Source: Euglena gracilis (lineage: Eukaryota). From it: a stretch of DNA of 64,000 bases. The stretch spans positions 27,454,123 to 27,518,122 of the forward strand of contig CP154954.1 of NCBI GenBank assembly GCA_039621445.1. The letters are read 5' to 3'. Both the position numbers and the translations under genes were made by a program. Under the pieces are notes generated by a model, which did no database searches, was not told where the DNA came from, and saw only the letters and a program-made list of their open reading frames with translations. This document shows positions 1 to 30,150 of the stretch, in pieces; the stretch's first letter is position 1; every line of letters starts with the position of its first letter.

Positions 1-1923
1 ATCCTACCCAGGACCTTTGTCGGCTGAATAACTCGGGCCTGGATGGGAGTTCGGTGTCAAACAATTTGGAAAGCTGGGATCCAGTTGCTTGCGATTGAAA
101 ATTTTTTTCTGGGAATGGGTTCGGGATCATGGTGATAATTCGCCGTTCTCATGACCAACCTGTGGGGGGGTCCCCCTTTTCCCGGTGTTAAGCTTCACCG
201 TTAAGCAACACTGAAGAGATAAGAGGTCAGCGATAAACACCCCCCAGGGATGTATGGGAAGCCTGTCGGTTTGAGGTTGGAGTAGGGGTCTTGACCCCTA
301 CTAGATGTTGGGTGGGGGTGTCCGGACCCACCCCATCCTTGGCAGGTTCTAAAAATGGCTAAATTTTAGCTTCCGGCGCTGTTGTGCTGGGAAGTCCTCT
401 TCCTCATTTTAATCATGTTGCACACTCAGTCATATTGCACATTTCTGGATATTGTAGTGTTTTCCACATTAAAAAAAAAAGCCAAAAATTCAAAATGAGC
501 ATTTTCGGATTTTTTTTTCAAAGAAGGATCAGGATTTCCCAACAATTTTGGTCTGGTATCCGGTACCCTTTGACCATCCACAGACCAAAAATTTTCCTGC
601 CCCTTACCGTTTCGAGGTCGGGGGCTCGAAAATCCCTCTGTGAGTCATTGTCTGGTGCATGTGCGTCACAGTCCATAGATGTGCGTCACTGTCCGGTGGA
701 GGTGTGTCACCGTTCGGTGGTTGTGCATCATTGTCGGGTGGGTGTGCATCACAATCCGGTTTGATGTGTTGGGAGGGGGAGTCCGGACCGTTCCTTAAAA
801 TGTGACCTCCCCCCCCCCCCGCTGGGTGTTGCTGATTGTTGTTTTTTTTCCAGACCCCCCCTTCTGGCAGTGTGGGCAGCTTGGAATTCCTGAAAATGGT
901 CACCCGGCGCTGGAAAATTTTTGGGATTTTGGCCAAAATCCCTTGATTTTAGGCCATTTTGGCTATGTGGCCAAAGTGGCCGACGCCCCCCCCCCCCCGG
1001 GTGGAAGTGGGTGACTGGTTTTTGAAAACGGCAAGCTACCCTCTCCCCCGGGGGGGGGGGGGGGGGTGGGTAAGCAATGGTATGGTCTTGACCTCAGGAC
1101 TTCCCAAACATCCCTGCCCCCCCCCCAAGTACTAATTTCGGCTGCCCAATAATAAACTATCCCTTCCACACTGTGGAAAAAGGCACAGAAAAAGGAATAA
1201 AAATCATCAAAAGCATTGCAAAAATGACAAAAAAGGATGAATTAGTCAGAATAGTAGTCGGAATAGTAGTCGCAAAAGGGTGCCTGTTTGTGGGGGAAAA
1301 AAAAGACCCTAAGTTGCAAAAAGGGGCACAGGTGCCCTGTTGATTCTTTTGTCAATTTTTGATTTTTGAACATTTTGCAAATACATGACAGGGCAAAGCG
1401 TTTTTTGGGTTTTTTTGATTTTAGGAAAATTTATATTTCTGCATTTTTGTTGTGTTTTGTGTTTTTTTTATCGTTTTTTTCTTTTGTCCCCTGGCAATTT
1501 TTTGTCTCTTTTGTCATTTTTGCATTTTTTTGTAAAAAAAAGAATTGCAGACTGACCGAATAGTAGCCCTGGGGGGCTTCTAACTGGGGAGGGGGGTTAA
1601 AGCCCTGGGGACCATCCATCACCCCACATCTCCAGGGCCAGCTGCGCGCCTGTGCCGTGCCACCGGCGCAACACAAAACCTGGTAGTCTGGGGGTTTTAT
1701 CACTTGGGGGGTATTTGGGGGAGGGAGGGGTTATTCATCTCATTAAAACGGACCATTTCATAAAATGGGCCACTGCAAAATTTTGTGCTGTTTCCTTCGT
1801 CTGGGAACATTTGGGCCATTTTTTGACTGCACTTTCGTCCGAACCAACATTATTCAAACCCGCACTGTGGAGTTGGAACAGACGTAGTCCCTTGCATTTC
1901 TGCTCCAGGGAAGGACGGCACAC

Positions 1924-4287
1924 CCCAACTGGCTTGCCGGACGGCGGGATGGCCCCGTCCCGCGCCTGGATGTCGGCCGCCGGCACCGCCTCGGCCAGCA
2001 TGTCCACCTTGGGGGCCGCCGCCTTGCCCGCACTGCCGGACCGCACGGCGTCGACCGCCGACCCGATGCGAACAACGCAGGCCGCTTGTGCGCACCTCCC
2101 TGGGGCTCGAAACCTGCGAAGCGCAACTGCAACTTGCAATTCATTCACCCCCCCTGCCCCCCAGCTTCTCGTGTGAATTTGATTTAATTTAGAGTTCTCC
2201 AGATGGAGGTTGGAAAATGGAAGGCGATGTGTTGAAGAACATGAACCAGAGAGGGGAGACATGGATGAATGGAAAAAAAAACGTTTTGTGTAGCAGAGGA
2301 AAGGGAAAGATAGAAAAAGGTTGGGTGAGAATGTGGTCCAGAGCAAAAAAGGAGTGTTGTTTGAAGCCGGCGGCAGTTGTCACAGCCACAAGAGGCCTGG
2401 CCAGCGGTCTGCTCGTTGAAGATCACGGAGGTGGGCAGCTGGATACCGAACGTTTTGTTCAGCTCCATCGTGGTCCGGATGGCCGCCAGGGAGTGGCCGC
2501 CGACATTGAAGAAGTTGTCCTCCGGGCCTGTGGAGGCGATGAGGGCCGTTTTGGGCCGCCAGGTTGCCATACCATGCCAGTGTGCAGCCAATGAGCATCA
2601 GAGCCGACACGGAGGGCCATCCACCTGCCTGGCAACGCATCCACAGGAGGGGGGGGAGCGATGATGGATGAACAGGGATGAATCATGAATGAATGGAGGA
2701 CGGAGGAGAGAAGGGGGGGGAGCGATGAACTGCGGGTGATGATGCACTCATTTCACAGGATATGTCAAAGTGACTTGTGTTGTGCCAGGTTTTGCATGCA
2801 TTGCTTGAGGTCGTTTGGACACATTTGCCGGCCCATGCCCATGCGCTCACACCAACTGCATTGGTGTGCAGGGCAGCCCGGATCACTTCCAGCACCTTCA
2901 GCTGGGTGGGAGTGAGGTGGTCCAGGCTGGCCGTGTTCTCTGGAAGGTCCGCATCCACACTGTCCAGCGGAGGCAATGCCTGAGAGAGGGGAACAGCATG
3001 CATGAGGTAACACAGCGTTGAAATTGTCTCCTTCATTCCCGGGTCAGCAACTATAAAGAATAAACGGTTCAGGCAATTAACTTCTTTTGCTGTATAAGGA
3101 TGCAATTTCACCCAAAACGTCAAAAAAGGCGTTTTTTCAACCTTTTATTTTCGACCCTGTTCGTGCCCCAATGCGCCCCTTGGACGGCCCTTTGGCCTGA
3201 GGGCTGTCCTTGAGGGGTGGCCCTTTATGGGGAAAAAAACCAAAATCCGTTGTGAACCGCCCAAATCTGAGTTTGGACTAGGATTTGGGAAGTGCGTGTT
3301 CTGTTTGCGCCCTCCAGCTGTGAACAAGGAAAGCCAAGCACGACCTTGTGGTTAATCTTTCCATTCGGGGTCAGCGGCATCTTCTGCAGCAGAATCACCG
3401 CCTTGGGCACCATGTAAGAGGGCACCTTGGTCTTCAGGAACTCCCACACAGGATTCGATGTGAGAGCGGGAGAGGGGTATCAGTCCGGGTCCCACCCTCG
3501 ACCACAGGAGGGGGGGCATCCTCCCCACCTCAAGCCGGGACACCCCCCGGCATCGAACCCTGCTCCCGCAGCTCACCCGGCAGCGTGGCCACTTGGGCGG
3601 CCGCTGCTGCCGTGGGCACGACGTAGCACACAATTTGTTTCTCGCCGGCGCGGTCCAACGCCTCCGGCAGCCAACTCTCATGTTCAAGCACTGCCGGTGC
3701 CTCTGCAAGCATTGTGGCCGATTTCCCCAACTTAGAAAGCAACCCAATCAGAGTTAAACCAAGACACCCCGGTTGTTAGAAGAGCCCAGTGAATGCCAAA
3801 GTTAATCTGAGGGTCAGCACACAGAGAACTGGCTGGCCACACGGGTGACGCTCTCCTTCACGGCCGGGTGGGAGCTCAGCTTGGCGTTGATCTCCCCCAG
3901 TTCGATGCGGAAGCCCCGGATCTTGATCTGGTCGTCGGCCCGGCCGACGCACTCCACGTCGCCGCTGGGGAGGTAGTGGCCCAGGTCTCCCGTGCGGTAC
4001 CAGCGGTCCCAGGCCACAGAGGGTTAATGGGCAAGGGTTGCCTGGGTGATTAACAAATAAAAAGTCTTTATGGTGTGTCTGCATGCGTGTGGGCGTGCGA
4101 GTGAGTGAGAAAGTGCACGTGAATGCGGGTGGGTGAATGTGCATGTGTGTTTGTGTGTTTGCGTGTGTGCGTGCGTGCACGTGTGTGTATTGTGTAGATA
4201 GGTGTGCGCGCGCATGCATTTTGTGTGGGTGTGGTGTGGTGTGGTGTGGTGTGGTGTGGTGTGGTGTGGTGTGGTGTGGTGTGGTGT

Positions 4288-4325
<38 letters not shown>

Positions 4326-7300
4326 TTTGCATCCGTCACATTGCGGTCACGATTGTGGTCTGTGGTCACGAGTGTGTGCAGGCGGACAGTTGCGTTCCAG
4401 GCCTCCTTGGGTGGAAGGGGTTGGGAATGAACTTGGCCGCCGTGTCCTCTGGCAAACCAAGGTAGCCCTTGGAGAGATGCGGGCTGCGCACATAGATCTC
4501 TGCCGCCTCCCCCAAGCCCGCCTGGAGGCCAGCTTTGTTCAGCAGAATCAGCCCCACGTCCTTCTGGCGCATGGCACGGCCCCCAGACGAGAAATGTCGC
4601 CGATCGAAATCCGCATGAAACGTTTGGATGTTGTTCCGGGGGGATTCTGAAAATAAAGCAACTACTGCCGGTGAAGATCAAGCTTCAGAACAGCAGGTCA
4701 ACCAGCTCGAAACAGGACAAGACTTTTTTTGGAGGAAATGGTCCAGTTGGTTGGGTGTTTTGAGGAACTCAATGGAAACATGCCAAATTGAGAAACCCTA
4801 TTCCAAAATAATTAAAAACGAAATCGAAACGAACAAACAAAAAGTTCATTCAGAAGATATTTTATTTCAAAAAAAGGGGGAAATATTTGTATAAAAAAAA
4901 CAAGCACATAGCGCAGCATTTGGGCTTTCAGTGCAAGAAATTGATGATTCTACAGCTGCTAGAAAGACCCAAAAGAGAGCACTAACGCAGAGATGAATTG
5001 ACAAAATTTTCTCCAAAATGTTTCCAACTGCAATTTCTCTGGGCGAGCCTCTGCTTCAAATCCATTGCATCACCCACAAATGGGCCCTGCCCACCCACCT
5101 TGGCCTGAGGCCAGCCGTCATTTGCCGCCCCATGTGCATGCCCCGGCCGCAGGGAATGATCTCCTTCAGCTTGGCCAGCTGGGCAGCATCCCGGGGCACC
5201 TCGTAGTACCCTACCGACCGCTGGGTCTCCGTGGTGCCGAACATGTTCACCACCTGAGAGGCCGGTGGCCCGCACATGTCTGTTGACGGCAATCCAGATA
5301 ACAACCGGGCAGGACAGCTGGGGCGCCCCGCACACCTTGACGTTGGGCGCCAGCTTGTGCAACAGCAGCACGTCCCGCTTGATGAGGACGTCGCCCACGA
5401 AGAGGCACACTTTGAGGGACGGGATCGTGAAGGTGGGATCCTGGAAGGAAAGACACGGACGCTGAGAACGTCGCCAGGACGTGGCATTCACAACTGACTT
5501 TCAGGGAGCAACCGCCGCACCATCGACATTCAAAAATCACCTTCCAAATAAATGCTTACCTCGCAGTCAGGATTCGATGTACAGCAGGGAAATTGAATGG
5601 TGGGACGGTCCAGGGAAACTAAATAGTGGAACACCCCCAAAAAATGCTAATCCCCCGGAGACCATCCAGGGATTTGTGCTTATCCTTTTTGGGAGGTCAA
5701 ATTCTTATCCGTAGTTATCCGTAGTTATCCGTAGTTATCCGTAGTTATCCGTAGTTATCCTTATTTGCTAAAATACCCTTCCTGACAGGGGATATCCATC
5801 TAGAAATGGCTGCAATTGAAAAGATGAAGAGAGTTGATCATCATAAACCTCAGGAATGCCTAAAATTTGTGAAATATGACAATCTAAACAGAAAACGACA
5901 AGCATCCAAGGGCAGATGGAAACAACACTGTCCGGTGTGGGTTTTTTTAAAATCTTTCATCCACCGTTCTTCACAATCACCGTTGCAGAACATGCCACCG
6001 GCTGCCTGCCGGAGGTGAGACGACATCCTCTGTCGGCTTTTAACATCAATGACGCCGGCCAAACTGAAAGCAGCCCATCTCTTTATAGGATGTACGCTGC
6101 CAAATGAAAAATTGTAGCGAAAAAAAAGCTGAAGAAAAGGGCTGCTTGAAAGACCGTTCAATCACTGCACTAGAGACAGGAAAATAGACATGAAAAACAG
6201 TCTCAGAAAGGGCGGGCTCACGTTGAGCCCAGAAAGGCCGAATGTCTCGTCAAAAATTTTGCTTATCCATAGTTATCCGTAGTTATCCGTAGTTATCCTT
6301 ATTCAGACTTTTGGGCTCATCCGTAGTTATCCGTAGTTATCCGTTTTTATCCGTATTTGGGGGTTTCAGGCTTATCCGTAGTTATCCGTAGTTATCCGTA
6401 GTTATCCATTTCAGGATAAGCACAAATCCCTGGACCATCTGCGAGTTGCAAAGGCTTTTCAAATTGTTGCAATATCAGGAGGCTTCAATGTGCGGCATGT
6501 ATAAAGTGCACCCAGTACCATCCAACGGATGGCCTAGGGCCGTGGGGGGTCTGTCAGTAACGGGTGGGACCACCATGAGCGTCGAGCACAGCAGCAAGGC
6601 GGCTGGGCATCGACGTGTATAAAACTCGAGTTTGTTCGGGAGAAATGTCAGCAAAAGCACGCTGCAGAGCTGCCCAAATTTCGTTTCGGTTAGGGAAAAC
6701 ACATCCTTCGAGCTTTGCAAGCAGAAACACCCACAGGTGTTCGATCGGGTTGAGGTCCGGGCTCATTCTGTGTTGCAAACAGGCCTCGTTTCTTCACCTT
6801 GCATGGGGGGAGGGGGCAGGGTGTTCAATCCACCTCTTATCTGGGAGAGATGCATCTGCCCCAGCCCATCATCAGATCATTTCCCCCCATTTGCTAAGCC
6901 TGTGCCTCACACTTCACAAGGGGAACGTTTGCGCAGAACCTCATGCTGGAGATTCCAACAAGATGGTGCACCGGCCCACCGAGCAAGAAGCACGGCGTCC
7001 TGGCTGCGGGACAATGGAGTGAAGATGCTGGATAACGGGTCCTGTGCAGGCATCTGCTTGGAGTTAGTGGATCTCATCAGTTTGCCAGGCGTAGGCGTGG
7101 GGAGGTCTCCGGGGTCCACTGTGAATGATGCATTTTCCAAGCTCTCATCGAAACCGTTCCCCTTGTGAAGTGTGAGGCACAGGCTTAGCAAATGGGGGGA
7201 AATGATGGGCTGGGGCAGATGCATCTCTCCCAGATGAGAGGTGGATTGAACACCCCATGCAAGGTGAAGAAACGAGGCCTGTTTGCAACACAGAATGAGC

Positions 7301-10300
7301 CCGGACCTCAACCCGATCGAACACCTGTGGGTGTTTCTGCTTGCAAAGCTCGAAGGATGTGTTTTCCCTAACCGAAACGAAATTTGGGCAGCTCTGCAGC
7401 GTGCTTTTGCTGACATTTCTCCCGAACAAACTCGAGTTTTATACACGTCGATGCCCAGCCGCCTTGCTGCTGTGCTCGACGCTCATGGTGGTCCCACCCG
7501 TTACTGACAGACCCCCCACGGCCCTAGGCCATCCGTTGGATGGTACTGGGTACACCTTATACATGCCGCACATTGAAGCCTCCTGATATTGCAACAATTT
7601 GAAAAGCCTTTGCAACTCGCAGATGGTCTCCGGGGGATTAGCATTTTTGGGGGGTGTTCCACTATTTAGTTTCCCTGGACCGTCCCACCACTTAATTTCC
7701 CTGCTGTAAGGGATGGTGGGGTCGGACCCCAATGGTGGGAGGGGGGGATTGGACCGTGCTACTGTTTAGGTGGGGAGTGACATCCCCCTCCCACACCTGA
7801 ACTGCAGCGTGGTCCAGGTGACTAATTTTCGGCCCGGCGCTTTGTGCCAGGCCGAAAAATTTTCGACGCCAAAGCGGCCAAAACTGCATTTTTGGAACTT
7901 TTTGGGGCAAAAATTGTCAAAAATGCAAAAAAAAAAATGGCTCGCAGCAACGGAAAGAAAATTTTGATCTTTTGGGGGGTCCCCCAGGGGTCGGTCAGGA
8001 CTCCCCTGGCAGGTGGGAGGGATGGTCCGGATCCCCCCCCCAGTCCAGGAGGCGGGGGGGACACCCCCCAACTAAACCCCGTGCACCCTCCTTGTATTGA
8101 ACCCTGGTACGAAGTGTCATCTCAAATTTTTATTATCCGGGTTTTTGAAACCTCCGATATCGAGGCTGTACTGGGGTACAATCTGAAAACCACGAAAAAG
8201 CCACTGCCCTGTGGACTGAGGGTGGGACCTTCCCCAGGAACCCACAAAAATATTTTCCGGGCTTCGTGCCCGTTTCAAGCCCCCCCAGAATCCCAGCGCT
8301 TCACGCCGCAATTTTTTTTTTGGCACGGGGGTGGATGCACGTCTGTGTGCTGGCGTGCGTGCATGTGTGCAGGTGGGTTGGTGGTTGTGGGTCCAGGGTT
8401 TTCAGGTGAAATTCAAATAAGACACCTGGTGGGATTTGGGGTGGTTAGGACTCTCCCCTTGGGGGGGTCTGACCCACCAGGAGGTGAACAAGCATATGAA
8501 CCTGCATGTTCTAGCATGTGTAGGCGCGTCGCACACATGCATCCCCTCCAGGTGGCAGGTGCTATGGGTGGATGGCATTGCTCAAATAAGGGAAGGATGG
8601 ACCGCAATATGAAGGGGGGGGGGGGTGGGACCCACCCCATCTGACCACTTTGCAAACCAGGTGGCACAGCCACAAATGAAGGATTCACCCTAAAATCGAT
8701 GCTCTGGAAGAAAAAAAATGGCAGGGAGGTGCAACACGCTGACAGTGCGCTGCAGAGAACTGCAAAAGAACTGCAGAAAGAAACTGCAAAAAAGAAACGC
8801 ATAGAAAAAGAACTTTAAATTTCTGCTGTGCCTAGAGAAATTCGATTTTTTTCAAAAAAACTTTCATGAAAGAAAAAGGATGCAAAAACCTTGGCCTGAC
8901 ATTTTCAAATTTTTGCTTTTGAAAAAAGAAAAAAAATTGTTTTAAAAAAACTCCAATTCAAAAAATCCATTCCAAATCCAAAAATCCACACCAAAAAAAA
9001 CTGCAAGAAACTGCTCAGAACACATTTCCCCCCTCTGCGTGCGCATGTGCAGCTGCCCATTTTTTGGATCGTCCAATTTTTGTTTTGATGTTTCATGTCC
9101 TGCTTGGCCCAAAGGGGTGGGGGAGGCAGCGGGTTTCTTCCCCACCGGCCTAAAGAGTTTATTGCCTCTGATACGAACATGGCTGAGTGGGAATTCCAGC
9201 AACTCTATTGCCTCTGATACGAACATGGCTGAGTGGGAATTCCAGCAACTCTTGGCTTGCAGGTGACCTGTCCATCCACCCCCAGCTCCCTTTTTGCTTT
9301 CAGCAAGCACACACGTTCACACACTCACGCACACCCACCCACACAAACATCCACCCACACCATACAATTGCTTACCGACCCCCCGGGGGGGGGGGGAGGG
9401 GGGTCACTCCACTTTTTTAAAAACCAGTCAGTCACTCATTTTCAAAAAACCAGCCAGTCACTACCCCCCCAGGGGGGGGAGGTCGGCCACTCAGAAAAAT
9501 GGCCACTTTCCAGTCACTTTAGGTCATTTTAGGCCCAAAAAAATTTTCCGGCGCCTTCGGCGCCGGGGTCACTCAAGCCACTTTTGCCCACTCCTGGCCG
9601 CCCCCCCCCGCCCCCCCCCCGGGGGGGGGGGGGGGGGGGGCCCGGGCCAAAAAACAGCAAGTCACCCCGGGGGGGGGGGTCGGTCAGTGCTTAAGCAATT
9701 GCCTGACCCACACGCACCCACCCACCTACCCACACACCTCAACCGTGATCAAGATCTGGCCCATTGCAGGAGTGCAGCAGGATTGTGTGATTTGGTTGTC
9801 GTACATCCATCTGGCCAACTGCCCCGGGGTGGTGATGGTATCCTGTGTTTCCAGCAGTGGATGACCTTCACCCACCATTGAAAGAAGGACAAACAAACAA
9901 CAAAGAATACACGGGATATGGGTGGTGAAATGTTGCGTAAAAAGAATCCATGGGGAATTGTTCTGAAATCACAGATCGAAAAAAAGCGGGGGGAAAAAAA
10001 AGATGTAGAAAACGAGTTACGAAATTATGCCGAGAAAATCAAAGATTAAACCCAACACTTTACAACAGGGCATGCTCTGCTTGGAATGCAGATGGTAGCT
10101 CCAAGGAAAAGTGGGGTGAAGATATCTCGCTGCAGAGGGTCATGGGCAATTCCACTGCACATAGCAAAGCGGTCAGATTCTCCCGCTGGCAAGCAGCTGT
10201 GGACAGTTGCAACACCAGCAGAGGCAAGGGTGAAGGGCAGAAAGGTCACATTTGCTAATACAGGAAAACAATCCTATCAGTGAAAAAATCCTGTCCCAAT

Positions 10301-12043: not shown

Positions 12044-15000
12044 CGCCTTGGGGATGCCAGTGGACCCAGAGGTGAATGCCACCATGGCGGTGTCCAGCGG
12101 GGCGATGGTCACTGCAGGCAAGGTGGTGGGGACCCCCTGCAGCAACTGCGCCAGCCCGGCGGCGTTCGGCTCGTCGATGCTGTGCCACGCCTTCAGCTGC
12201 AGCCCTGGGGGGAAAGCAGGAGTTCCCCTCCAAAGCAAACTCTGGCGGAAAAAACACCCAATGTATTGCAGCGTCTGCTCCCTTATTTTCCTTTGAGCGT
12301 ATCGTGTTCAATTCTCTGAAAAGAAAATGAAACCCGGATTTCGAACCATGGCCACCCACAAAGAGCTTTGGGCTGCAAAGGGGATACCTTGGAGGAAGTT
12401 GCGCAGGTCCTCCGGTGGTGCCCCTGCAGCTGCAATCTGCAGCCATCCCTTGGGCTGAGCGATCTGCATGCACAGCATGATGCGGTCGGAGGGGTATGCC
12501 GGGTCCATCATTGAATACGCCGCCCCGGCATCAGGAATGGCTGGCAGTGGCTGCCCCCCCACAAAGCCAGACTTGCAGCGTCTCTGCCCAAGGCTTCTTT
12601 TGTTGTTGAAAATCTAAGAGGAGGGCTGCCTCTTGTGTCACACCCCCCATTCAAAATGCCTTGCATTTTTGGGCACTTTTGGGCAAGGCAAACGTTCTCA
12701 CGGCAATTACTTGGGTTGGGGGCGGAGGCAATCGGAGGTCGGCCGGACCCCTTCCCCCTGCCCTCCAGCGATCCCCGGACGGCCTTCAGCACCGCCAGGA
12801 TGCAGAGCACCACCGCCGGGGACCGGTGGCCGTAGAGGCCGATCACGTCGTGCTGGGCGATGCCGTCCTGGCGGAGCCGGTTGGCCAGCTGGGAGGACTG
12901 GTGGTCTCCCTCATCCGCAACTGCTTCGCGTTGGAGCGGGGGCACTTGGGAAACCAATCTGTAACCTGCACCCAATCCTGGACGGGGCGAGGATCAGGTT
13001 CAAAACAACAATAATTGAGACCAGATTTCCCTTGATCGCAAGGGTGACATCAAAATGGACCAAAATGCTTCAAAACCACACAATTTTTGGTGAAATTAAC
13101 AAAGAAAAATGCACAGAATCACCAATTTTGATCATTTTTTATCACCCTGTTGGGCAAGTATGTCCCCACTTATTTGCTGGGGAATTTCGAAGGTTTTTTA
13201 AATTAAAAAAAAACGTCTTCTTTTTTTAAAAAAACACCAGCTACGCCGGGTCGAATGCTGCACACGCACCAAGAGGGTGTTGTCGCTATCTGACCAAGGA
13301 CAAACTGGAGGATGGGTTTTAAACACAGGACGGAGTCCCGGGGGGGGGGGGGGGGGGGGGGTGCTCGCAGGGCTAGCTAGTGAAAAATATGCAGTACCCA
13401 CTTGCCTAAAATGCCCTTTCTTGGCAAAAAAAAATCAGCCAAAAAACACCCGGCACAAGATGGCCAATTTCAGCAAGGCTGCAAAAAGGGTTCAGAAATG
13501 TGTCCCTGTCCAAAGTGTCCCTGTAAAGTGTCCGTGTCACCAAAGTGTCCGTGTAAAGGGTCCCTGTAACCAAAGTGTCCCTGTAAAGTGTCCCTGTAAC
13601 CAAAGTGTCCCTATAAAGTGTTTGTGTCACCAAAGTGTCCCTGTAAAGTGTCCCTGTAACCAACGTGTCACTGTAAAGTGTCCCTGTAACCAAAGTGTCC
13701 CTGTAAAGTGTCCCTGTAACCGACGTGTCCCTGTAAAGTGTCCGTCAAACCTCAAAAAAAAAAAAACGTCCATTTGAAAATTTTTAAAATTTGCCAAAGA
13801 AGAAAAGTCATGATGCATCCCACCATGGACTTTGGTGTCGAAGGCAAATGGCTCCTTTGAGGGGGTAAACCAAGACTTTTGCCACTTTGAGGGATACTTT
13901 CATGGTGCATTTCCACCGGGTATCATCTCATTTGCAACAGCTGTGCTCTGAAGAGCTGTGGTGTTGAACCCCCCCCCCATTTAAACTGACCCCCCTTCTA
14001 AACCGACCTACCCTTCCAAACCGACCCATTGCAGAATTTCAACCAAAAAAAAATAAACCGACCCATGGCAAGTTGGATGACAAACATGCACAACATAATG
14101 GAAGCCACCAACGGAAAGAGCGTCCATGCTCATTGAATAATTAGTATTGATGACCCAAAATTAGGATTTTACCCCCAAAATTAGGCATTTGCTTCCAAAT
14201 TTTGGAGTTACACCCAAAAATTACAAAATTAGGCATTTGCTATTTAAATTTGAAATTTGCACCTAAAATTCGGCAGTTTGCCACCAAAAATTGGATATTA
14301 CACCCAAACTTCAGCATTTGCCCCCGAAAATTAAGAATATGCATCCCAAATTAGGCATTTGTCATTCAAAATTAGGAATTGGCCAAATTGGGCTTTTGCC
14401 CATTGAAATTGCCTTGCTAACATCAACCTGCTTCCGTCACGCCGTCGGCCAGCCGTGTGCTCCCCCTGAAACCGACCCCCTGTCTAAACCGACCCCCTCC
14501 GGGATTTCCGCCAACCCAAAAGTCCTAAACCGACGGGTCGGTTTAAATGGGGGGGGTTGCACCAGTTTTTTCAGAGATTGCACATCTCTTGATTTGTTAG
14601 ATTCAGAGAGCTTTTGCAAAACGTCCCAATAATTCTGAAAGTAAGTGCGAAAGTCTCCGCAACGGAATCTCAAAAAAATTCCCACCAGCCTCAAAGATTT
14701 TGGCAAAAGGCCAGAATTATTGGGAACGTGGTCAACAATTTTGGCAGGAAATCCCAAAAAAATTGTGAGTGTCAGGTGTGATGAAAATTCCTTTCATGTC
14801 GTCCAGTCAGGGGTTGCTTGTATTCTGGTGGTTGCTCATATTTGGGTGTTGGCGAAAATCGGCGAAAGGGTTGCTTATAGTTGGGGGATGTTTGCAGAGG
14901 GCGGTTGCTTTTATTTATGGGGGGGTGGCCAGTCAAGGAGGAGGACGTGGCCAATGTGGTTAATTTTCGTCCGGTGTACAGCGCCGGGCTGGAAAAAAAG

Positions 15001-18000
15001 CCCTCAGAAATTCGCCAAAATGCCATTTGGGGTATTTTTGGGGGTCTAACTATTTGTATTTGTTTGTCTTATTTGAACCACAATAAATGATGATGATGAG
15101 CACGTGCTCAATGCGCCTCAATCACACGCTTTTACTTACCTCTCAGTCCAGAGAAGATGCATTGCACTCTGAAAATGACATTCTTGAGAATTATCACCAT
15201 GCTGGCGATCCGCGCATTCCTGTTATTTTTCTGATTCACACATCCGAGATCATTCATATGTTCTGAGAAATGACATATAGCTAACACTCACTATATTTTG
15301 CCCGGTCTCTCCTTTTTTCTGCCTCCCGTCCCAAAATATTTTGCACACTCGTTTCAAAATTTTTGCCCCCCGTCCAAAAAACGCTGCCCCCTGTCCATTC
15401 TATTTTGCCCAAAAAACCTCGAATTTTTGCCTCTGCCCTCCAAATTTTTGCCACCTCCAAAAACAGTCTCCCGCCATTTTCAGTTGAAATGTCTGCACAG
15501 AATGTTCCACAATGTTCCACAGAATGTTCCACCCCTACACACTCACATTGCACATTGTGACATTTTAAACACCATTTTTGCATGTCGAAAAAGAAAAAAA
15601 GAATTTCAATTTTGATGCATTTCTGAATGGTGTGGTGTTGTTCAATTGTGCCCAAATCTGTTTTCACCCAATGAGCTCACAGACCACAGCCTTTTTCTGT
15701 TTGTGTTTGGATTGCTTGACTTGGTCAGACGGTCCATGGATCCATGATGCATTAGAACGGAGACAAGGCACAGGGGGGGGAGGGGGGGTCCGAGGGGTGG
15801 GTTGGAAGTTGTACAGGGGGGGGGGGGGGGGGGCAGAAAATCACAACTGTACTGCCTACTCCCGAGACAGTTGCGACATTTTTCGTCCAATTGAGGTTGC
15901 CTTTGTTGTACAAGCATTTTGTGCAGTTCAGAGTTCAGATTGCATCTTGCGGGAAGATGACCAATGCTGTTGCATTTGTGATTGATCCGTGACCCGAGAA
16001 TCGCGCCTTCAAGTTTCATACAAAGCAGCAACCTTCATCACTTTAGCATTTCGTTTCTTTTCATCATTTCAGTCTGCTTTTTGATGTTGCGGTTTTGGTT
16101 GCTTTTCATAAATTTTCCGGTTGAAACCATTGAAAATTTTCCTTGACATGTCAAAAACTCCCCTCCTTCCATTTGGACAACCAAACCCCTTTTTGGCACC
16201 TTCATACCCAAAAATGGCCAAAAAACTTGTCCCCTAAAAATAGTGCCGAAAATTGGTGCATTTCCACATCCAAAACAGAATTTTTTGGGCCATTTTTTCA
16301 AAAATGGCCCAAAATGCATCCCAAAAAATGTGATGGTCAAGAAAATCCTAACAAAATTCCCTTTCAAAAATGAAAAAAATGACCAATTTCGGACATAAAA
16401 AACACCCAAAAATGCCCACTTTCGGACCAAAAAGCTTTTTTTGTTTAAAAATGGCCTAAAAATGGACAAAAATAGCCACGTTTTTGACCGGAAAGTCACC
16501 GATTTTAGGATGCGTGCCGCCCTTCTCGTGATGGGATGCACATCATGGATGCAGCCTCCCGATCCAACGTGGCATACTTCCAGCGTGACCCCCCCGTGAC
16601 CCCCCCCCCGTGACCCGCACCACCCCCAAAATTTCACAGAATGCTGAATGATAGTCAATGTTTTCATTTTAAGCACTCAATTTTTTTCATCTGTCTTGGG
16701 GGGGTTGGAAGTGGGGGGAGGGGGGTCCCAGGAGGGGGGGTTGGAACTGTACAGGAGGGGGGGGGAGGGGGGGTCCCAAGGTTTGACCAACCGTACTGCC
16801 TTGTCTCCAACAATATCTATCTGTGAATACAAATAGGTCAAAAAGGCAGTTTTTAAAAATAATTACAGCTGGAAGGCAGTGGGATTGGTTCTTTTGTTAC
16901 CCGTCCCTCTCATTACAAAGACTCGGAATATTTTTACTGTGCCTCTTTGTGTGGAATGACCCTCGCACATGGACCAAAAGTGCCTTCACCCCTCATTGCC
17001 AAACACGCTGTGCGTTGTGTTCACCGTTTCCCTCAACCTGCACCCCAAACTCTCTCGTGTGAATCACAACCATTACGTTGCTGTTGATTTTTACTGTTTA
17101 GGCATTCATCCGCACCTCTCATTCTTTCCCCAAACACAGTTGAAGGATTTTTTTATAGGGTATCAAACAAATTTCCTTTTGGAGAGCTGTCTGCAACATC
17201 CTGTGAAATTTCAATTGTTATTATTTGGATTGATGGTCACATTTATTTGGCGTATTTCTGTTAATCTATGCTGATTCTGTTGGACGTTTCCTTTTCACAT
17301 TAACGGGAAAAATTTTTTTACAGTTGGCAAAAGTTTCGGGTCTCAAGGGCAAAAGTGATGGGATTTGTGGCAAAAAATTTTACCCGGGTGGCAAATATTT
17401 CTTGGAACCCTGGCAAAAGTGAGGGGTCCAGGAGGCACCATATTTTGGGGCGGGGGGCAGAATTTGGAGGGGTTAGCTACAATTGCAGCAAAATAGGTAC
17501 AAATTTTCTGGTTTCTGTCAAACCGGAATTTTGTCTCTGAAAAGAAAGCATGCAAAATCACGCATTGAGTATTGGGTCACCAGCACTTTTTCTGTGAAAA
17601 ACCCTGGTGCTGGTCCATACGACCGGGGGGGGGGGGGTGATCCGGAATTGTCAAAAAAAGCAGGGTCGGGGCGGGTGGGGACACCCCATCCCTTGAAACA
17701 CAGGCACCCTGCTTATGTCGAACCTGGCTGGGCAGGCTTCTTTTCAAGCCAGCCCCCCACCAGGAACTGCCAATGCTGTACTTGAAGGACTGGTGGGGGT
17801 TGACCCCCCCACCTGGGAGGTGGGGAGGGGTCGGTCAAATTCACTGAAAAATCGGTGTCCCCGGAAATGGACCTGGTATTGGGGGGGGGGGTCAGAGTGA
17901 AGACACCCCACTGTTCCCAAACCCTTCAGCCGAAACTCCATTGCCACGGGCGGGTGTTTAGATGGGGGTTTGGAGGTGGGGATGTGGTTGGGGGTGGTCG

Positions 18001-21000
18001 ATCCCACCCGCCCACCACCCACAGGCAGGGGGAGGGAGATTCCAGTTTCCAAAAAAAAATTTCATTCGGATAGGGGTTTTATTCCACAAAATTTGGGATC
18101 TTTCCAGTTCTTCTGGTAGATTTCTGCTTGACAGGACTTAGAGAATTTTCAACTCCTTGGGGATTCTTTTTCATTTTGCAACATTGGTGGATATTTAAAT
18201 TCTGAATCGCATTTTGTGATTTTGGGAACATACCAATTCCAAAAACATGGAATTTGTTGACCAAAAACTGAAAAAAAAAGTCAAATTTTGACGAAAACTT
18301 TGGTGTCAGGAAGAAACGAGGTCCTAATGCAGATTTTATAAGTTCGAATTTTTCCCCCAACAGAAGAAAAAGAAATTCAAAAAAGGCAAAAACTGGCCGA
18401 AATTGCCAAAATTATGCCTAAATCAAGAGAAAATATGAAAAGAAATTCTAGTGGTCCAAAAAAGCCGCAGATTCACCTAGGCTTCCATTTCTTTTTTAAA
18501 ATTTCCATGCGTTGCGCTGAAAATTTTATTCTGGCCAATCCCACATATTCCTATTCCAATTTATTCTAGTTCATTCCGGTTAATTCCAGTTTATTCCATA
18601 CCGGAATATCTCCCCTGCATAGGGGGAGCACTAAAAGTACCCATTAAAAAATCCCTCAACCCCAATTTTCCACCATTTAAGACCTTTTCTTAAAAATTCA
18701 ACACAGCTGGCCCAGATTTAAGCAGTTGTATGGTCCAACTCCTCATATGTCACCGACAAGCCTTGGTAGGAGATGGCGATGCGCTGTGGAGAGCACCGTA
18801 AGGGCATGAGGCTGCCATTGTTAACCCCCCCATTTATGCCCCCCCCCCCCCCCCCCGGAAAAATCAGAAGAAATCCATTTGTACCGACCCCCCCCCATTT
18901 ATATCAATACCTACCCCCTCGCTTGCATCCGGGCCCACCAAGGGAAACCACAACAAAGCACAAAAACTCGCAATAAACAAAAAAGAGCATTCAGGCATCC
19001 CCAGCATCCACTTTTTGCCAAAATATGAACAGATTGACTGTTGTTTATTGGGGGTGATGTGAAACATGGGAGAGCATGAATGCACATCGCTTCGTCCCTG
19101 GCCCCCCATGTCAAGCACCTTAACCCATTTATTCTGACCCCCCCCAGGATCTCAATAATGTGAAAATGATACACCAACTCGTCGGTGTTAATGGGGGGGT
19201 CACATGCAATTTTGAGAAACGGTTTGGACTTGAGAGCATTTGCCCGAGGTGACGTAGCCACGAAGACAGGTCAGGGGCCACTGATTGTGTTTCCGGAGTG
19301 GTGCACTTTTTTTTTCCAGACTGGCAGGCTGGAAGTGGTCGAGGGAACCCACTGTAGCTGCCTCGAGGCCACCACCTCCTTGCCAAACATCATGCACCCC
19401 ACAACGTCGGGAACAGAACTGAAATTGTGTCTAGTTCTGAATGTTATCAATTACCGACATATCAACAAGAAATTGCATCAATTTTCTGAGGCCCTACACA
19501 CCACCAGTGCTGACGGACCTGTGGATGCTTCTCTGCATTCGCATGAAAGCAGTGTGGGATTGGCCCGGGGAACTCGGTGTCCTGAGGGGCGGTGGCATCA
19601 GGCAGCACTTGCTTCGCCTGCGCGGTGATGACGGAGTAACTGTAAATCCCCTGCTCGGGGTTTGCACTGGTCAATGCCAGGCCAGAGCTGAGAATCGTGC
19701 ACCCTGTCTCACCAGCATGATGCACATTTGGTTCACGTCCTGTCTGCTGCTGTCATTCCCACCGTTTCTGGAACACACACACACACACACACACCAGGGT
19801 TCGATATAAGGACAGGTGGGGGGGGTGGTCCGGACCCCCCCCTGCGGGCCAGGAGGGGGGGGGGGGGTGGGGGGACACCCCCCCCACCTAAACAGGTGCG
19901 CGGTCAGGGTGGCTGAATTTCGAAAATTTTTGACCCCTCAAAACGACCAAAAGTGCCATTTGGGCACTTTTTGGGCAAAAATGTGCCAAAAATGCAAAAA
20001 ATTTTCGGCGCGAAGCGCCGGAGGAAAAAATTTACCCTTTTGGGGGGGGTCCCGGGAACCCCCCCGAGGGTCGGTCCGGACCCCCCTTGCAGGTGGGGGG
20101 GGTGGTCCGGACCCCCCCCCCCTGCGGGCCAGGAGGGGGGGGGGTGGGGGGGATACCCCCCCCACCTAAACCATGTACGCCCTCCTTATATCGAACCCTG
20201 ACACACACACACAAAATACAAAACCACAAAATTTTTTTTCATTGTCCTGGATTTTTTAAGGCTTTCTGTCATAACCAAGCTCATCTGCGCATCAATTCCA
20301 AATGCGGCATGAACAAGGGTGGGTGGGTGGGGGGGTTAGACAGAAAGAGGGTGCGGGAATTGCAAATTTTCCTCGTTAGAGGCCAGAATTCAGATTTGGC
20401 ATTGGGAATGAGATCTGCGGGGGCGATACGGGGAGAGGAGAAATGCAAACACCTTTTTCCATGATTTTGGGAGTTTGGTTTTATTTTAAGCATAAAATAG
20501 TATTTTTGGCCAAAAATCCAATAATGGCCAGACAAAGAGATACAATTTTTTTTAAAATTCGGAATTGTGAGCAGAACTCAAAAAACCGCTGAAATAACAA
20601 CATGGTGGTGGAAAAAAGCTCCCCCACCACAAATTCAACAAAATGGAGAACGGCAAAAAAATGCATTAAAAAAACCAATGCAAAAGCCTGAACTGCTCCA
20701 GGAGGAGGAGGTATTGCTGCAGCAGGTCTGCAACAAACTCGGCCGTGAACAAAGCGGTCTGGTAGTGCAGGCGCAGGGTCTCTCCCACTACTTGCAGCAG
20801 CAACTCATATGGCGACTGCCCCTCCTGCAATGAACGAGAGAATGGACAGAGGAAGCACGCTGATTGTATCAAATCACTCGCGAAGCGCAGAGCAAGGCTC
20901 GACTTTAAACCATGTGGGGCTTTGGGGTAAGAGACCAACGCATACTGGGCAAACAAAGTGAGGGATGGAGCGGTCAACTCAACCCCCACAGTCTTTGTGG

Positions 21001-24000
21001 TCTTAATGTGCATGCTATGTACGGAAAACAGAATTTTTGAGCTTGGGGGAGTAAGAGACCAAGTAAGACACCAGAGAGTCACTGTTCACCTCCATCCCCC
21101 TTTGGCAAATCCAATGGCCTGGAATGAATGAAAAGCTTCTCATAAACTGCAAGAATGCACACGGAGGGGCAGGTCATCAGGGCTTCTCCATGAACGTATG
21201 GCAAAAAAAAACACACCGCGTCTAAACCACTGCCCGTTGAGGAAAACACTGCAGTAAAGAGTGGCGCTTCCTCAGCACACAATTGCTTGATTGCTCCAAA
21301 GGAAAGAGCTAGATTTCATCGGTGGAATTGCAAGTCTTGCATTGCAAGTTGAACAGGGAACCATTTTGAGATCCCAAAAATTATTCAGGACTTTGCGGTT
21401 GTTTTGTGCCAAATATAAGGGGTAACCTCAGGGTGTCCGCTCGTACCTGTCCCCCCCAGGTGGCCAGGACCTCAGGGTTCTTTTTAAGGCGCCTGAAAAC
21501 CATTTTTTAAAACACAAACTAATTTTTGTCAATGGCTTAAAACTCCTTAAAATTTTTTAAAAATCTGGGAAAATTTTTCGAAATTCGAGCCGAAAAATGA
21601 AGTCGCAAAATCTCGGCAAGAATAAGCCAGTTCCGGGGGAAGAACTGGCATCGCTGGAACATCATCCACAGACCCAAACTCGAAAAAGTGGGGGTTTCAA
21701 CATTTTTTTCTTGATTTTGGGCTTGAATCAGGTTTTGCCTTACCGTCCGGGGGGGGGGGGGGGGGTGGGTGCTATAGGGCCTGCCCTAGCAGGCACACCC
21801 CCCCCCCGGGTAGGGGTATGGGGGGGACCCAGAAAATTTTCATTGAAAAGGGCCTTTTCCGGGCCCTCGGTCGGAGGGGGTGCCTGCTATGGGCAGGTAC
21901 CCCCCAAAACCCAACCCCCCCCCCGGGGGGGGTGGATGGGGGGTATAGGGGGCCTGCCCCTAGCACCCCGCCCCGCGTGAGGTAGGACCCCGACTAAGCA
22001 CAGGCGTGGCTTGAATTCCCTCGGAAAAATAGACGCCTGAAAATTTAAAAATGCAAGAAAAATTTTGAAAATTACGCCTTACAAAAATGCTCCTGAACGC
22101 CCTCTCCCTGTTTTTCTAACAGGGAAAATGGTCAACTTTGTTCTGGGTGCTGCTCACCCCCAGGCAAGGATGTTGGGACCAACCAACCATCATTTGGTTG
22201 TTTGGAGTTGGCTGGCACTTGCGTGTCCCTGGCTCACTCCTGCCGCCGCCTCGATGTCATTCGGCGGCAGCGCTGGGTGGAGGAATGTGAGAATGAGGCG
22301 CACCGCCGGTCCCACCCAGCCCTGCCCAGGGGCAGCACCGCGTCCTTCGCCACCTCCAGGTGCGCCTTGGCCGCCGCCGCCACCGTCGCGAACGTCCGCG
22401 CCGCCGCCGTGGAACTGCTGCTGAAGTCCATGGGGAGGGGCAGCACCGCCGCGCCCACGCTGTGCAGGGCATCCCCGACGATGACCTTGTTTTCCGCCGA
22501 CAGCCGGTGGACGTGGAGGGCGAAGAGGGAGGCCAGGTGGGCTTCATCGGGGAGGCAGCCGGAGGGCAGCTTGGCCTCCACAAACCTTGATGACTGCTGG
22601 GGCAAGCCTTTGGCTTCCAGCAAACCCATTGAAACCGTGTATTGGGGCTCTGGCTTCACGCCCGAACCGGCGTTCTGGACGCCGGGTCGGTGGAGAAAGT
22701 TCTGCGCCGAACCGGTGTCCAGAACGCCGGTTCGGGCGGGAAAAACGGCGTCCTGGGGACCGAAAATGAAAAGTGCCCAAAAAACAAAAACTCGACCCCT
22801 TTTTGAGCTTGTTATTTTGTGCTTCGACTGACCCGGGAAGTTTCCTCCACTCACAGAGCCCACACCCCATGCCCCTCCATCATTCCACATATTTGGCCAC
22901 GAATTATTGCATTATCTGGCAATTTACCCCACCACCCCGGCCACCCCCCCCAACACTTACCGTCATCCTTGCCCCATCTCCAAACATGCTAAACCCCCAC
23001 ATCTTTTCCATTGCATGCAATTCCTGGCGAACTAATTCCCACGCAGCCCTCAACATGCTCCTTCATCACCATTTGGTTTTGCGCTGTCACAATTTACCTT
23101 CCCGAAAGCCCAGCCGAATCATTTCCAATTCTTACCCCCCCCCCCCCAGGCGCACCCTTTTCCACCCTATAACCCCCTTCCCCCCAAACCCCTTGCACAC
23201 CCTTTTCTCCGCTCTCCAACACCCACCCCTCCGCTCGCGTTATCCCCCAACCATCCGCCCCGCACCCCACCCCCTCCCGACCCAAACCTTATCTTATTAT
23301 ACCCCTTGGCTACTGTCTCACCCCCCAAACCCCCCCGCGCCCCCCTCCTCTAACCCCCAAAAGACCCTCCCTTACCCTCCTCCCTCCAAAATGGTTTGTA
23401 GACATGAGGCAATCATATCTGAGCACTTCTTGGTATTTGGCCAGAAATTGGGGTATTTTGTGGAACAATTTCCATTTGGCCAAATCTGGGGATTTTCTGA
23501 AATAGAATACCATGCAGCAGGGCTGAAATCTAAGGCCATCTAAAACCCTTGAGAAGGGTTATTGATCAAGGGGCAACATGGCAGGTGAACAGTGGATTTT
23601 GGAATTTGCGCAAAGGGTCCAAAAATCGTAATTCTGAAAAAACCCAAGGGGTCCAGCTAAAATTTCTTAACCATAATTCTGAAAAACCCAGGGGAGGGTC
23701 CAACCAATTTTGAAAACACCCAGGGGGGGCCAAAATTTCCCAACCGTAATTACCCCCCCCCATAATTGACACCCCCGAAACCCTCCAAACCCCCCAGGTA
23801 GTGTCAATTATGGGGGGGGTGTCACAATTATGGGGGGGGTCCGAACGGACAAGGCAAAATACAAGGGACTCCTGACAAACCCCTTGGTCCGTGGAAATAA
23901 CTCATTTTAGCGGCATGCCAGACACATGCCGGAGCTTGAAACACTCAAGGTAGACATTTGACAAAGCAAAAGCAAGGCGGAAAAGACGCGAGCGGCTGAA

Positions 24001-27831: not shown

Positions 27832-28638
27832 CAGGGAATTTCTTGAGCCGGAGGGTACCCTACCCCCCGGGGGGGGGGTCCAGCCAGCCAGCAGCTCAAT
27901 TCCAGCCAGCAGCCAAAATTCGGGCGGGGACCCCCCCCCCCCCCCCCGGGGGGTCAAGTGAAATAAAGTCGGGTCCAGCCCGGCCGGAGGCTGGGCCAGC
28001 CGGCCGCAGGCCGGCCCAGCCGGCCGAAGGCCGGCCTTCCAATTGTGCTGCCCAGCTCACCTGTCCCTTCATTTTTTCGGTACTTGTCTGTTATCGCACG
28101 ACAGACCCCCTTTTGGTTATCGCACGACGCCCTTTTTTTTTTTTTTTGTTTTTTTTTTTTTTTTTTTTTTTTTCCTTTTTTTTTTTTTTTTTTTTTGGTT
28201 AAATATGGGGGATTGAAGGAGCAGGGTTAGGTGCGCACAGCCATGTTGCGCTAAATAGCCTGTGCGCACCTAACCCACTCCTTAAATAACCCCATAGGAC
28301 TAAAAATAAGGTGTCGTGCGATAACCAAAAAATAAGGTGTCGTGCGATAACAGACAAGTACCATTTTTTCCCCTCATCGCAGCTTCCTCCATCACGGCCC
28401 CCCAGCCTTGACCTAGCTCCACCCATAAAAATGTCGAAAATGGCAAAAATGTGTCAGAAAGTTTTGTTTTTTTTTTCGTCGACCCAGCCCAGCCCAGCCC
28501 CCTCCGGCCCCGGACCCCCTCCTCCCCCCCTCCCTCCGGGCGGGGGGGGGGTTTCAGCCAGCAGCTCAAATCCAGCCAGCAGCCTTATTGCCAGCCGGAG
28601 GCTGGACCCCCCCCCGGGGGTCCTTAAGAAATTCCCTG
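27832..28638. mobile_element. hAT-like MITE nested in the 27708 element
   Basis: CAGGGAATTTCTT ... AAGAAATTCCCTG; perfect 8-bp TSD GTTGCGCT; related sequence at ~10720-11200. Confidence 0.9.
28079..28362. mobile_element. Short copy of the 27708 family nested in the 27832 MITE
   Basis: GGTACTTGTCTGTTATCGCACGAC ... GTCGTGCGATAACAGACAAGTACC; 8-bp TSD ATTTTTTC. Confidence 0.88.
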
Positions 28639-29728
28639 GTTGCGCTACACGGCCATGCTACGCGGGTCAACGTAGCGCTACATGGGAGGTTCGTCAGCCA
28701 TCCCCCCCCCTGGTGGTTGGACCCGCTCGGCACAGCAAAATGGGGACCCCCCCCCCCTGGTCAGCCAAACCCCCTCGGCACGGCATGCCGAACCATACCA
28801 ATGAATTTTCCTTTGGTAAATTCCAGCTGTCCACCACGGGGCAAAATGGGCCCCCCCTGGTGGCCGAGGGTCCACGTCAGACGTGCCGAACCTCCATGGC
28901 CGTGTTGCGCAACATGGCCATGTAGCGCTACGTGGCCGCGTAGCACAACACGACCATGTTGCGCAACATGGCCGTGTACCGCAACATGGCCATTAGCACC
29001 TAACCCAACTCCTTCAAATAACGTGACCCCCCCCCAATATGGCACCCCCCCCCGGAGCGTTTTGACCCCCCTGGCGACAATTAGGGGGGGGGGGGGACAA
29101 TTAGGGGGGGTTACTCAATTTACCCCACATGCCTATGGGTCCATGGGTACCCCCCCCCTAATTGTCGCCCCCAAGGGGGGGCGACTATTAGGGAGGGGTG
29201 ACGAATAGGGGGGGGTCACGTTAACCCCATGATAACCCAAAAATAGGGCGTTGTACCATACCGAAAGGGGGGGGGCGTCGGTTGTACGATAACAGACAAG
29301 TACCCTCTTTTCAACAGACGGCCCATTTTTGGCCTCAAACCTCGCAATTTTTTCGCGAATTTTTTTTCTTGGGGAAGCTAGGCACAGAGGGTTCCAAGTC
29401 CACGACACAGTTCTCAAAAATTATATAAAAATCGTGGGCATAACCCGTTATACGCCCTGAATACGGGTTATGGCCCACAATTTTTTTGTAACCGTGTTTA
29501 GAGAGGCCCGGCGCCTGCCCTGTATTTCGTGGGTAGGACCCTGACCCGGACCCTAACCCCAACCGTTGCTTGTTCACTGCACGACCGCCACCAAATATTT
29601 TACAAGTCAGTTGCTCTGAGGCCTGAATGGTGGTTGTATGAGGTATTTTGAAGGGTCGGGGTCTGAGGTTTTGCTTTTTGGGTGGCGTGCAGCCTTGTGA
29701 CCTGACTTTGACCCCAAGGAGGCTGTGG

Positions 29729-30150
29729 CAGGGTTGACGTTTTTTTTGTTTTTTTTAAAAAAAACAAAAAAACATGTTTTTTTTTAAAAAAACGCAAAAA
29801 AACATGTTTTTTTTGAAAAAGCAAAAATTGACCTTTTTCCTTGCGAAATGGCCGTTTTTTGAGGAAAAAGTTCTAAAGTCATGTTTTTGGTCATCAAAGT
29901 GGCGTTTTTTTTTGTTTTTCCAGACCCTTCATCCAAAAATACTAAAATGATGGTTCATGTGAAAGCCATCACCCTTTACGGACTGCGAAGCTGCAGAGAA
30001 AAAAATGACCTTTTCCTTTAAAAAAACGTTCAAAAATTTTTTTCACCCAAACCCTCCATGACGTTTTTTTTGTTTTTTTTAAAAAAAACATATTTTTTTT
30101 TAAAAAAAAACATTTTTTTTTGTTTCAAAAAAAACAAGCCGTCAACCTTG
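29729..30150 (+). mobile_element. hAT-like MITE (CAGGGTTGACG family)
   Basis: CAGGGTTGACG ... CGTCAACCTTG; perfect 8-bp TSD GGCTGTGG. Confidence 0.92.

Follow-up and report, generated by a model that had tools for sequence, protein, structure and literature searches.

A nonconventional intron in a LYS2-like gene of Euglena gracilis as a probable insertion of an 8-bp-duplicating, hAT-like MITE

How the nonconventional introns of euglenids arose is a question that has stood open since 2013 or before. The literature on the question, cited here from its openly searchable text, begins with the proposal of an origin resembling that of a MITE (miniature inverted-repeat transposable element), made in 2013 when no transposable elements were known in euglenids (PMC3935182). 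A 2024 review describes terminal inverted repeats (TIRs) and repeats resembling target-site duplications (TSDs) at these introns and calls a MITE origin 'likely' (PMC11282704), other publications term such an origin 'hypothesized' (PMC11170887) or 'plausible' (PMC12621601), and a study of 2025 holds that the 'origins remain unclear' (PMC12501133). Frequent gains of these introns have been published (PMC3935182), and they make up 71.8% of the introns of E. agilis (PMC12501133). In its searchable text the genome paper gives bulk repeat classes only (PMC11252322), and the searchable literature, subscription papers and supplements excluded, names no element family, superfamily or TSD length for nonconventional introns. 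Here, we describe a locus of Euglena gracilis that raises this question in concrete form. It lies in a window of 64,000 nucleotides, the whole stretch of DNA analyzed (contig CP154954.1 of assembly GCA_039621445.1, positions 27,454,123 to 27,518,122), in which a 114-bp element at 3449-3562 splits a minus-strand LYS2-like gene. We present evidence that the element is the core of a genuine nonconventional intron, and we place at roughly 0.85 the probability that a hAT-like MITE, which duplicates 8 bp of its target, inserted into an exon of this gene and is removed from the transcript as the element plus one copy of its TSD.

The element has the anatomy of a transposon insertion. Sequence inspection and inverted-pair detection delimit two 12-nt TIR arms, CAGGATTCGATG at 3449-3460 and CATCGAACCCTG at 3551-3562 (the latter reading CAGGGTTCGATG on the minus strand), which match at 11 of 12 positions and are 92% complementary. 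The CAG and CTG at the two ends directly abut 8-bp flanks, CTCCCACA at 3441-3448 and CTCCCGCA at 3563-3570, that agree at 7 of 8 positions; we calculate a probability of about 4e-4 for a match of at least 7/8 at one fixed pair of 8-mers. Read on the minus strand, with carets at the intron borders, the locus is GAG CTG CGG^GAG CAGGGTTCGATG...CATCGAATCCTG TGTGG^GAG TTC CTG AAG. The TSD copy at 3563-3570 contributes TGCGG to the upstream exon and then GAG as the first 3 nt of the intron, and the copy at 3441-3448 contributes TGTGG as the last 5 nt of the intron and then GAG as the first codon of the downstream exon. The intron contains one TSD and the element, and nothing else. In a contig of DNA run X1 the element differs by 3 substitutions and a 1-nt deletion in 114 bp, and the flanking exons are identical. 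At 3453, one of the substituted positions, the window has A and run X1 has G; the G allele makes the TIR a perfect 12/12 match in DNA. With the A of the window, the minus-strand transcript has a G-U pair at this position, and the RNA stem is therefore kept with either base.

The interrupted gene spans 1924-26198 on the minus strand and has 22 introns in the window, as placed by a codon-exact splice search. Translation of a 69-residue exon led to P0013, a 100%-identical, transcript-derived protein of 1295 residues that carries the EukProt label Euglena gracilis EG_transcript_671 and whose residues 1-902 are placed by tblastn from 26198 down to 1924. The designation LYS2-like, for an alpha-aminoadipate reductase-type A-T-R enzyme, is reasonable but not proven. 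It derives from Pfam matches to AMP-binding, AMP-binding_C, PP-binding and NAD_binding_4 (Condensation being sub-threshold), from an end-to-end match to the best NCBIfam model, TIGR03443 (L-aminoadipate-semialdehyde dehydrogenase), that reaches 877.6 bits and lies under the cut-off of 1030, and from the JGI name of an orthologue, P0121, which is likewise L-aminoadipate-semialdehyde dehydrogenase. The exons on either side of the element, 3563-3659 upstream and 3344-3440 downstream, both on the minus strand, are delimited by tblastn with P0013 and by the corresponding pieces of an RNA contig.

Removal of the element from the transcript was followed by mapping two raw RNA-seq runs (X21 and X24), an RNA contig set (X15) and a DNA contig set (X1) onto positions 1300-4200. 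A joint from 3440 to 3563, which skips 122 nt, is present in 45 reads (22 + 23) of X21 and 17 reads of X24, drawn from 318 and 121 reads, respectively, on the whole 2.9-kb stretch. The same joint occurs in one 3853-nt RNA contig of X15 and in none of the DNA contigs of X1. No intron retention was detectable in X21 or X24, where the intron bins have no depth beyond their few exon bases. Because five letters fit on either side of the joint, six registers, from 3441-3562 to 3446-3567, are equivalent; GT/GC-AG borders are absent in all six, and the ends read CT..TG on the plus strand. One register that the RNA allows, 3444-3565 on the minus strand, is GAG-CAG...CTG-TGTGG^G, with the purine G as first exon base. 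Euglenid nonconventional introns follow an experimentally defined code, 5'-N3CDG-/-CH'GN5-6^R, together with about 12 bp of pairing beside the CAG and CTG (PMC12501133). The intron fits this code, with CAG lying 3 nt in from the 5' border and CTG plus 5 nt at the 3' border, and its TIR arms are paired as a stem in both the minimum-free-energy and the centroid RNA fold, the single mismatch being a G-U pair; the z-score of the whole-intron fold, -1.7, is unremarkable. We conclude that the 122-nt segment is a genuine nonconventional intron. An initial annotation, made from the DNA sequence alone, had described the 114-bp element with its TIR ends and 7/8 repeat, and all of these are present. It had further proposed the exon junction CTGCGG^GAGTTC, which falls within the 5-nt ambiguity range of the RNA-seq joint; an N3-CAG...CTG-N5^R pattern, which is matched in a register permitted by the RNA; and restoration of the frame upon removal of 3 nt, the element and 5 nt, in agreement with P0013, which reads straight through the junction.

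Is the element a member of a repeated family? At no more than one mismatch, the arm CAGGGTTCGATG occurs at 7 sites in the window, as compared with 0.2 expected from shuffles. The sites bound three further elements (5568/8095-8106, 19795/20189-20200 and 63059/63473-63484), and the family with the CAGGGTTCGAT TIR thus comprises 4 copies in 64 kb, of 114, 406, 426 and approximately 412 bp, all small and non-coding; the intron core is its internally shortened member. The 406-bp copy (19795-20200, plus strand) and the 426-bp copy (63059-63484, minus strand) are full-length and have 12/12 TIRs. The former lies inside nonconventional intron 6 of the same gene and is flanked on both sides by ACACACAC, which is uninformative since the copy is located in a CA repeat, and the latter has 8-bp flanks, CCTACACA and CCTCCACA, that match at 7 of 8 positions. 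The third copy (5568-8106, plus strand) is a composite inside conventional intron 14 that has a degenerate 3' TIR and no recognizable TSD, and measures approximately 412 bp without an element nested in it. None of the three is an intron in its own right.

The nested element is a young foldback element at 5582-7706, inserted at a TA (TA/TA flanks). Its terminal arms, 87 nt long, are 97% complementary, and further in lies an inverted duplication of 376 nt with 99% complementarity. Its TA flanks make it Tc1/mariner-like, and a 70-residue open reading frame (ORF) within it, at 7295-7504, has a weak Pfam match to DDE_3 (E 0.017, below the cut-off); this remnant has no Pfam match at E<=0.01. A metagenome scan with a 17-nt TIR pattern returned 51 loci, none of which has both arms and in which blastn matches extend over just 20 nt, and these were rejected as family members and regarded as chance matches.

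The homology of the intron to the family extends beyond the TIRs. Because the hypothesis is specifically that of a collinear, internally deleted copy, the interior was scored by an end-anchored alignment that allows one free deletion in the MITE, against 500 dinucleotide-preserving shuffles of the intron interior only. In the forward orientation the three copies gave z-scores of 4.8, 3.6 and 5.2, with 0/500, 1/500 and 0/500 shuffles reaching the score; in the reverse orientation the values were 1.1, 1.4 and 1.6, with 73/500, 53/500 and 36/500. Specificity was checked by aligning six further TIR/TSD elements from the window in both orientations, and the z-scores of these 12 tests ranged from -2.0 to +1.1. 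Plain local alignment to the 3' portion of the 5568 copy gave a z-score of 4.4 (2/500 shuffles). The intron is composed of the 5' TIR, one subterminal block, GTCCGG..CCC..CAGGAGGGGGGG..CCCCACCT.AA.CC, and the 3' TIR, and it is 68-74% identical to the MITE ends. In the full-length copies the subterminal block is present twice in direct orientation (blastn self matches 19813-19893 and 20090-20171), which explains how a deletion gives the short form. The interior collinearity with the MITE is real but modest.

The initial annotation had anticipated much of this family relationship. The first 13 nt of the intron are, as it reported, identical to those of the 5568 copy; the interior collinearity and the direct block repeat that it invoked are both present, and the comparison with shuffles that it proposed is significant and specific to orientation and family. 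Its description of 'three free MITEs' holds for the TIR, which is the same at all three, and fails for their setting, in that two of them are themselves located within further introns of the LYS2-like gene; the 5568-8106 copy, in particular, shares the 5' TIR and lacks the TSD, an intact 3' TIR and freedom from a nested element. Overall, its observation is confirmed and its interpretation of the intron as MITE-derived is supported.

Elements of this general architecture are common in the window. When the window was scanned de novo for CA and TG ends separated by 40-3000 bp, with a TIR of at least 10/12 and 8-bp flanks matching at 7/8 or better, 12 matches emerged, the intron element included, as compared with an average of 0.1 across 30 block-shuffled sequences. 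Among the 12, 63112-63413 is a low-complexity artefact, and 28648-28904 and 28648-28922 are alternative calls of one element. Seven further CA...TG elements, at 27832-28638, 28648-28904, 29729-30150, 43680-45244 (with 44360-44672 nested in it), 54531-55180 and 9361-9705, have TIRs of at least 10/12 and 8-bp TSDs of 7/8 or 8/8 and represent at least four other TIR families. The CAGGGTTGACG family has three copies, with TSDs of 8/8, 8/8 and 7/8, and the remaining elements are those with the TIRs CAGGGAATTTCT, CATACAATTGCT and CAGACCGTTGCT, each with a TSD of 8/8, and CACGGCCATGCT, with a TSD of 7/8. In total, the window houses approximately 10 elements of the CA(G)...(C)TG type that have 8-bp TSDs, and they belong to at least five TIR families. 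When excision of the other nine TIR/TSD elements was simulated, no convincing coding frame appeared and the open spans stayed within background; a coding frame was restored by the intron element only.

To which superfamily does the CAGGGTTCGAT-TIR family belong? Its termini are CAGGG and its TSD is 8 bp. The hAT terminal motif is of the YARNG type, and CAGGG ends are typical of hAT; we take the 8-bp TSD and CAGGG ends here to point to hAT. By its ends the family is hAT-like, and it probably belongs to that superfamily. The rival that survives best accepts the same insertion event and assigns the family to another superfamily with 8-bp TSDs, Merlin or P. The ORF lists of the window contain no hAT transposase that we could see, and the draft genome of E. 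gracilis is reported to contain two families of Merlin, which have 8-bp TSDs and intact DDE motifs (PMC8101967), a likeness both of organism and of TSD length. Merlin TIRs, however, have a conserved terminal 5'-GG (PMC8101967), whereas the real elements in our scan all begin with CA, mostly CAG or CAGGG, adjoining the TSD. We consider a Merlin or P affiliation unlikely, although it deserves more weight than any other alternative.

A second alternative reverses the direction of spread: the intron would have propagated as RNA, either through reverse splicing or through reinsertion of the excised, circular intron, and the apparent MITEs would be copies of introns. Excised nonconventional introns are reported as circular RNAs (PMC11282704, PMC12501133), and the free copies in the window also bear termini that conform to the splicing code. 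Yet 8-bp duplications are the signature of the staggered cut of a transposase and accompany approximately 10 elements of several TIR families here, and the copies of full length (406-426 bp) occupy non-coding sequence. Spread through RNA is therefore very improbable as the origin of this intron.

If the intron was gained by transposition, a relative might preserve the site without it. The orthologue P0121, of 1285 residues, is 77% identical to P0013. Three shorter proteins, P0123, P0114 and P0122, come from one 830-kb contig; each reproduces part of P0121 exactly and then runs into unrelated residues, and for this reason we read them as genomic ORF calls. P0114 is unbroken from MFGTTETQ to NGKINHK, across the site of the element, where the counterpart in the window holds introns 16-19, and P0123 is likewise unbroken where the window has introns 2-4. 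Both end in an extension starting with V (GTN), P0123 exactly at conventional intron 5 of the window and P0114 exactly at conventional intron 20. The relative thus lacks seven nonconventional introns (2-4 and 16-19, the MITE-derived one included) and apparently shares two conventional positions, 5 and 20, a pattern that fits gains of nonconventional introns in the E. gracilis lineage and agrees with the frequent gains already published (PMC3935182). Absence of the intron in a related organism had been named by the initial annotation as a check, and the genomic ORF of the 77%-identical orthologue is indeed continuous across the site. Among ORF-called proteins of other organisms the only match to the same intron was P0124, an E. 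gracilis-like genomic ORF of 56 residues, found in other public contigs, which starts inside the intron with MW^EFLK and includes the intron's last bases; it adds no new lineage. An old intron that was lost in the relative, into which a MITE inserted and of which it replaced most, is more doubtful still than spread through RNA: polarity does rest on one relative at 77% identity, but the TSD coincides with the exon-intron junctions, the intron is TSD plus element only, and the seven absent nonconventional introns beside two shared conventional positions fit gains in the E. gracilis lineage.

The other introns of the gene allow the splicing code to be set against the insertion footprint. Nine of the 22 fit a GT/GC-AG register only, and 13 were counted as nonconventional, among them intron 18, which has both a GC-AG and an N3-CAG...CTG-N5 register. 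Complementary triplets in the arrangement N3-CAN...NTG-N5 are present in ten of the 13. Over these ten, the two 8-mers at the borders match at a mean of 3.6 of 8 positions at offset 0, and the 7/8 of the MITE-derived intron is the best of the ten. The excess of TSD remnants at nonconventional introns is small and partly built in by the 'slide' of the junctions. In introns 4 (21276-22225) and 8 (12912-18732), one end each matches the TIR of the 9361-9705 element, CATACAATTGCT, at 11 of 12 positions; the two may form a second, weak intron-MITE link, the chance expectation being 0.3-0.4 per 12-mer.

Convergence or chance, under which all nonconventional introns would need CAG...CTG and paired arms and the repeat would be an ordinary 'slidable' one, can appeal to the short direct repeats at the junctions of 84.4% of E. 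agilis introns (PMC12501133) and to the 10 of 13 introns of this gene that fit N3-CAN...NTG-N5, but it is as remote as loss of an old intron and already largely refuted, since the code does not need the 8-9 extra bases GGTTCGAT(G/A) that are common to three other elements, the arm occurs at 7 sites instead of 0.2, the interior homology is specific to family and orientation, and chance would set a 7/8 repeat flush against the TIRs with a probability of about 4e-4.

Several results nevertheless weigh against derivation of the intron from this MITE family, or against its extension to other introns. At up to two mismatches the arm occurs at 11 sites against 5.9 expected, which is not significant. 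The three family copies are old, 67-73% identical over their full length (blastn) and 59-86% at their ends, and no near-identical, recent donor was seen among the family copies in the window; what the initial annotation called a donor family still present consists of old, diverged copies. Between the intron and the copies blastn found no match at E<=1e-3, and in plain local alignment of the interiors two copies reached z-scores of 2.1 and 1.7, which 23/500 and 36/500 shuffles equalled. Lists of the ORFs in the window, which were not scanned with hidden Markov models, contain no obvious transposase apart from the Tc1/mariner-like remnant. Across the gene, the other nine rule-fitting nonconventional introns have a mean 8-mer match of 3.2/8, as compared with 1.6-3.2 at 24 displaced offsets, and several matches to a repeated TIR of the window are found in only 1 of the 13 nonconventional introns, the MITE-derived one. 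Finally, the relative is distant (77% amino-acid identity) and the use of a gene caller for its proteins is itself presumed, so that loss of the intron there is possible.

We envisage the following route to the present intron. A non-autonomous MITE of the CAGGGTTCGAT-TIR family would have inserted into the coding target TGCGGGAG, in codons L-R-E; the inserted copy, of 114 bp, would have brought both TIRs and one subterminal G/C-rich block, and the gain of 122 bases would put the codons that follow out of frame. In the RNA the TIRs would pair as a stem with CAG and CTG at its base, a structure that the nonconventional machinery would recognize, placing its cuts 3 nt ahead of CAG and 5 nt past CTG, a spacing known from euglenid introns (PMC12501133). 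Because 3 + 5 = 8 is the length of the TSD, such cuts would remove the element plus one TSD, 122 nt in all, and would restore the original frame whatever the target. The sole demand on the target would be a purine at TSD position 6, which is G here. The link between spacing and TSD length was first drawn in the initial annotation and is consistent with all of our findings. They suggest that the event was a transposition, and hence an intron gain, and that the element may have been spliceable from the moment of its insertion. More tentatively, the 3- and 5-nt spacers of the euglenid code may in general be the footprint of an 8-bp TSD, in which case every insertion of this class of transposon would be excised exactly from its first generation on, and most nonconventional introns may be decayed hAT-like MITEs, a generalization to which we would give slightly less than even odds.

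The intron resembles other euglenid nonconventional introns (PMC12501133, PMC3935182, PMC11282704) in its non-GT-AG ends, CAG at +4-6, CTG at -8 to -6, 12-bp terminal stem, purine at the start of the downstream exon and efficient excision from mRNA, and differs from them in being assignable to a repeated TIR family and in its near-intact 8-bp TSD. With the introners of Micromonas, Aureococcus, dinoflagellates and Amoebophrya (PMC11282704) it shares a TIR/TSD transposon in an exon and a transcript that loses the element and one TSD's worth of sequence. Those introners are removed by the spliceosome and the TSDs in Amoebophrya are mostly 3-5 nt (PMC11282704), in contrast to the nonconventional code and 8-bp TSD here. 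Furthermore, introners have many intron copies per family, whereas one intron copy of this family was seen in the window; as the intron is a single and fairly old instance, an 'introner family' is still to be shown. A further parallel is offered by hAT MITEs and maize Ds, which likewise have 8-bp TSDs and short TIRs with CAGGG at the start and are non-coding, internally deleted derivatives. In work of Giroux in 1994 (cited in PMC3935182), maize Ds was reportedly spliced out as an intron. Splicing of Ds relies on cryptic sites of the spliceosome and lacks precision, unlike the exact removal of the intron described here.

Some features of the surrounding gene were also noted. The exon at 22324-22599 is 90% identical to P0013, with 9 clustered amino-acid differences in 92, and five other exons are 100% identical; in addition, RNA reads carry about 50% alternative bases at 3611, 3900, 3934, 3949 and 3958. 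On these two observations, two expressed alleles or copies of the LYS2-like gene are likely. Word depth in DNA run X1 rises from a baseline of about 45 to about 11,300 at 1494-1590 and about 870 at 3046-3142, marking both segments as very high-copy genomic repeats, the second of them within conventional intron 20.

The locus unites a spliced intron, a transposon family with nearby copies, an insertion footprint and an intron-less site in a relative, and it turns a decade-old hypothesis of MITE origin into one that is directly testable. The prediction to be tested genome-wide is that the spacers of nonconventional introns sum to the length of the TSD, 3 + 5 = 8, and the consensus of the family can be used to seek the autonomous element. 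If the mechanism is general, insertions would be neutral to the transcript from the time they land, which would explain how Euglena tolerates massive intron gain.

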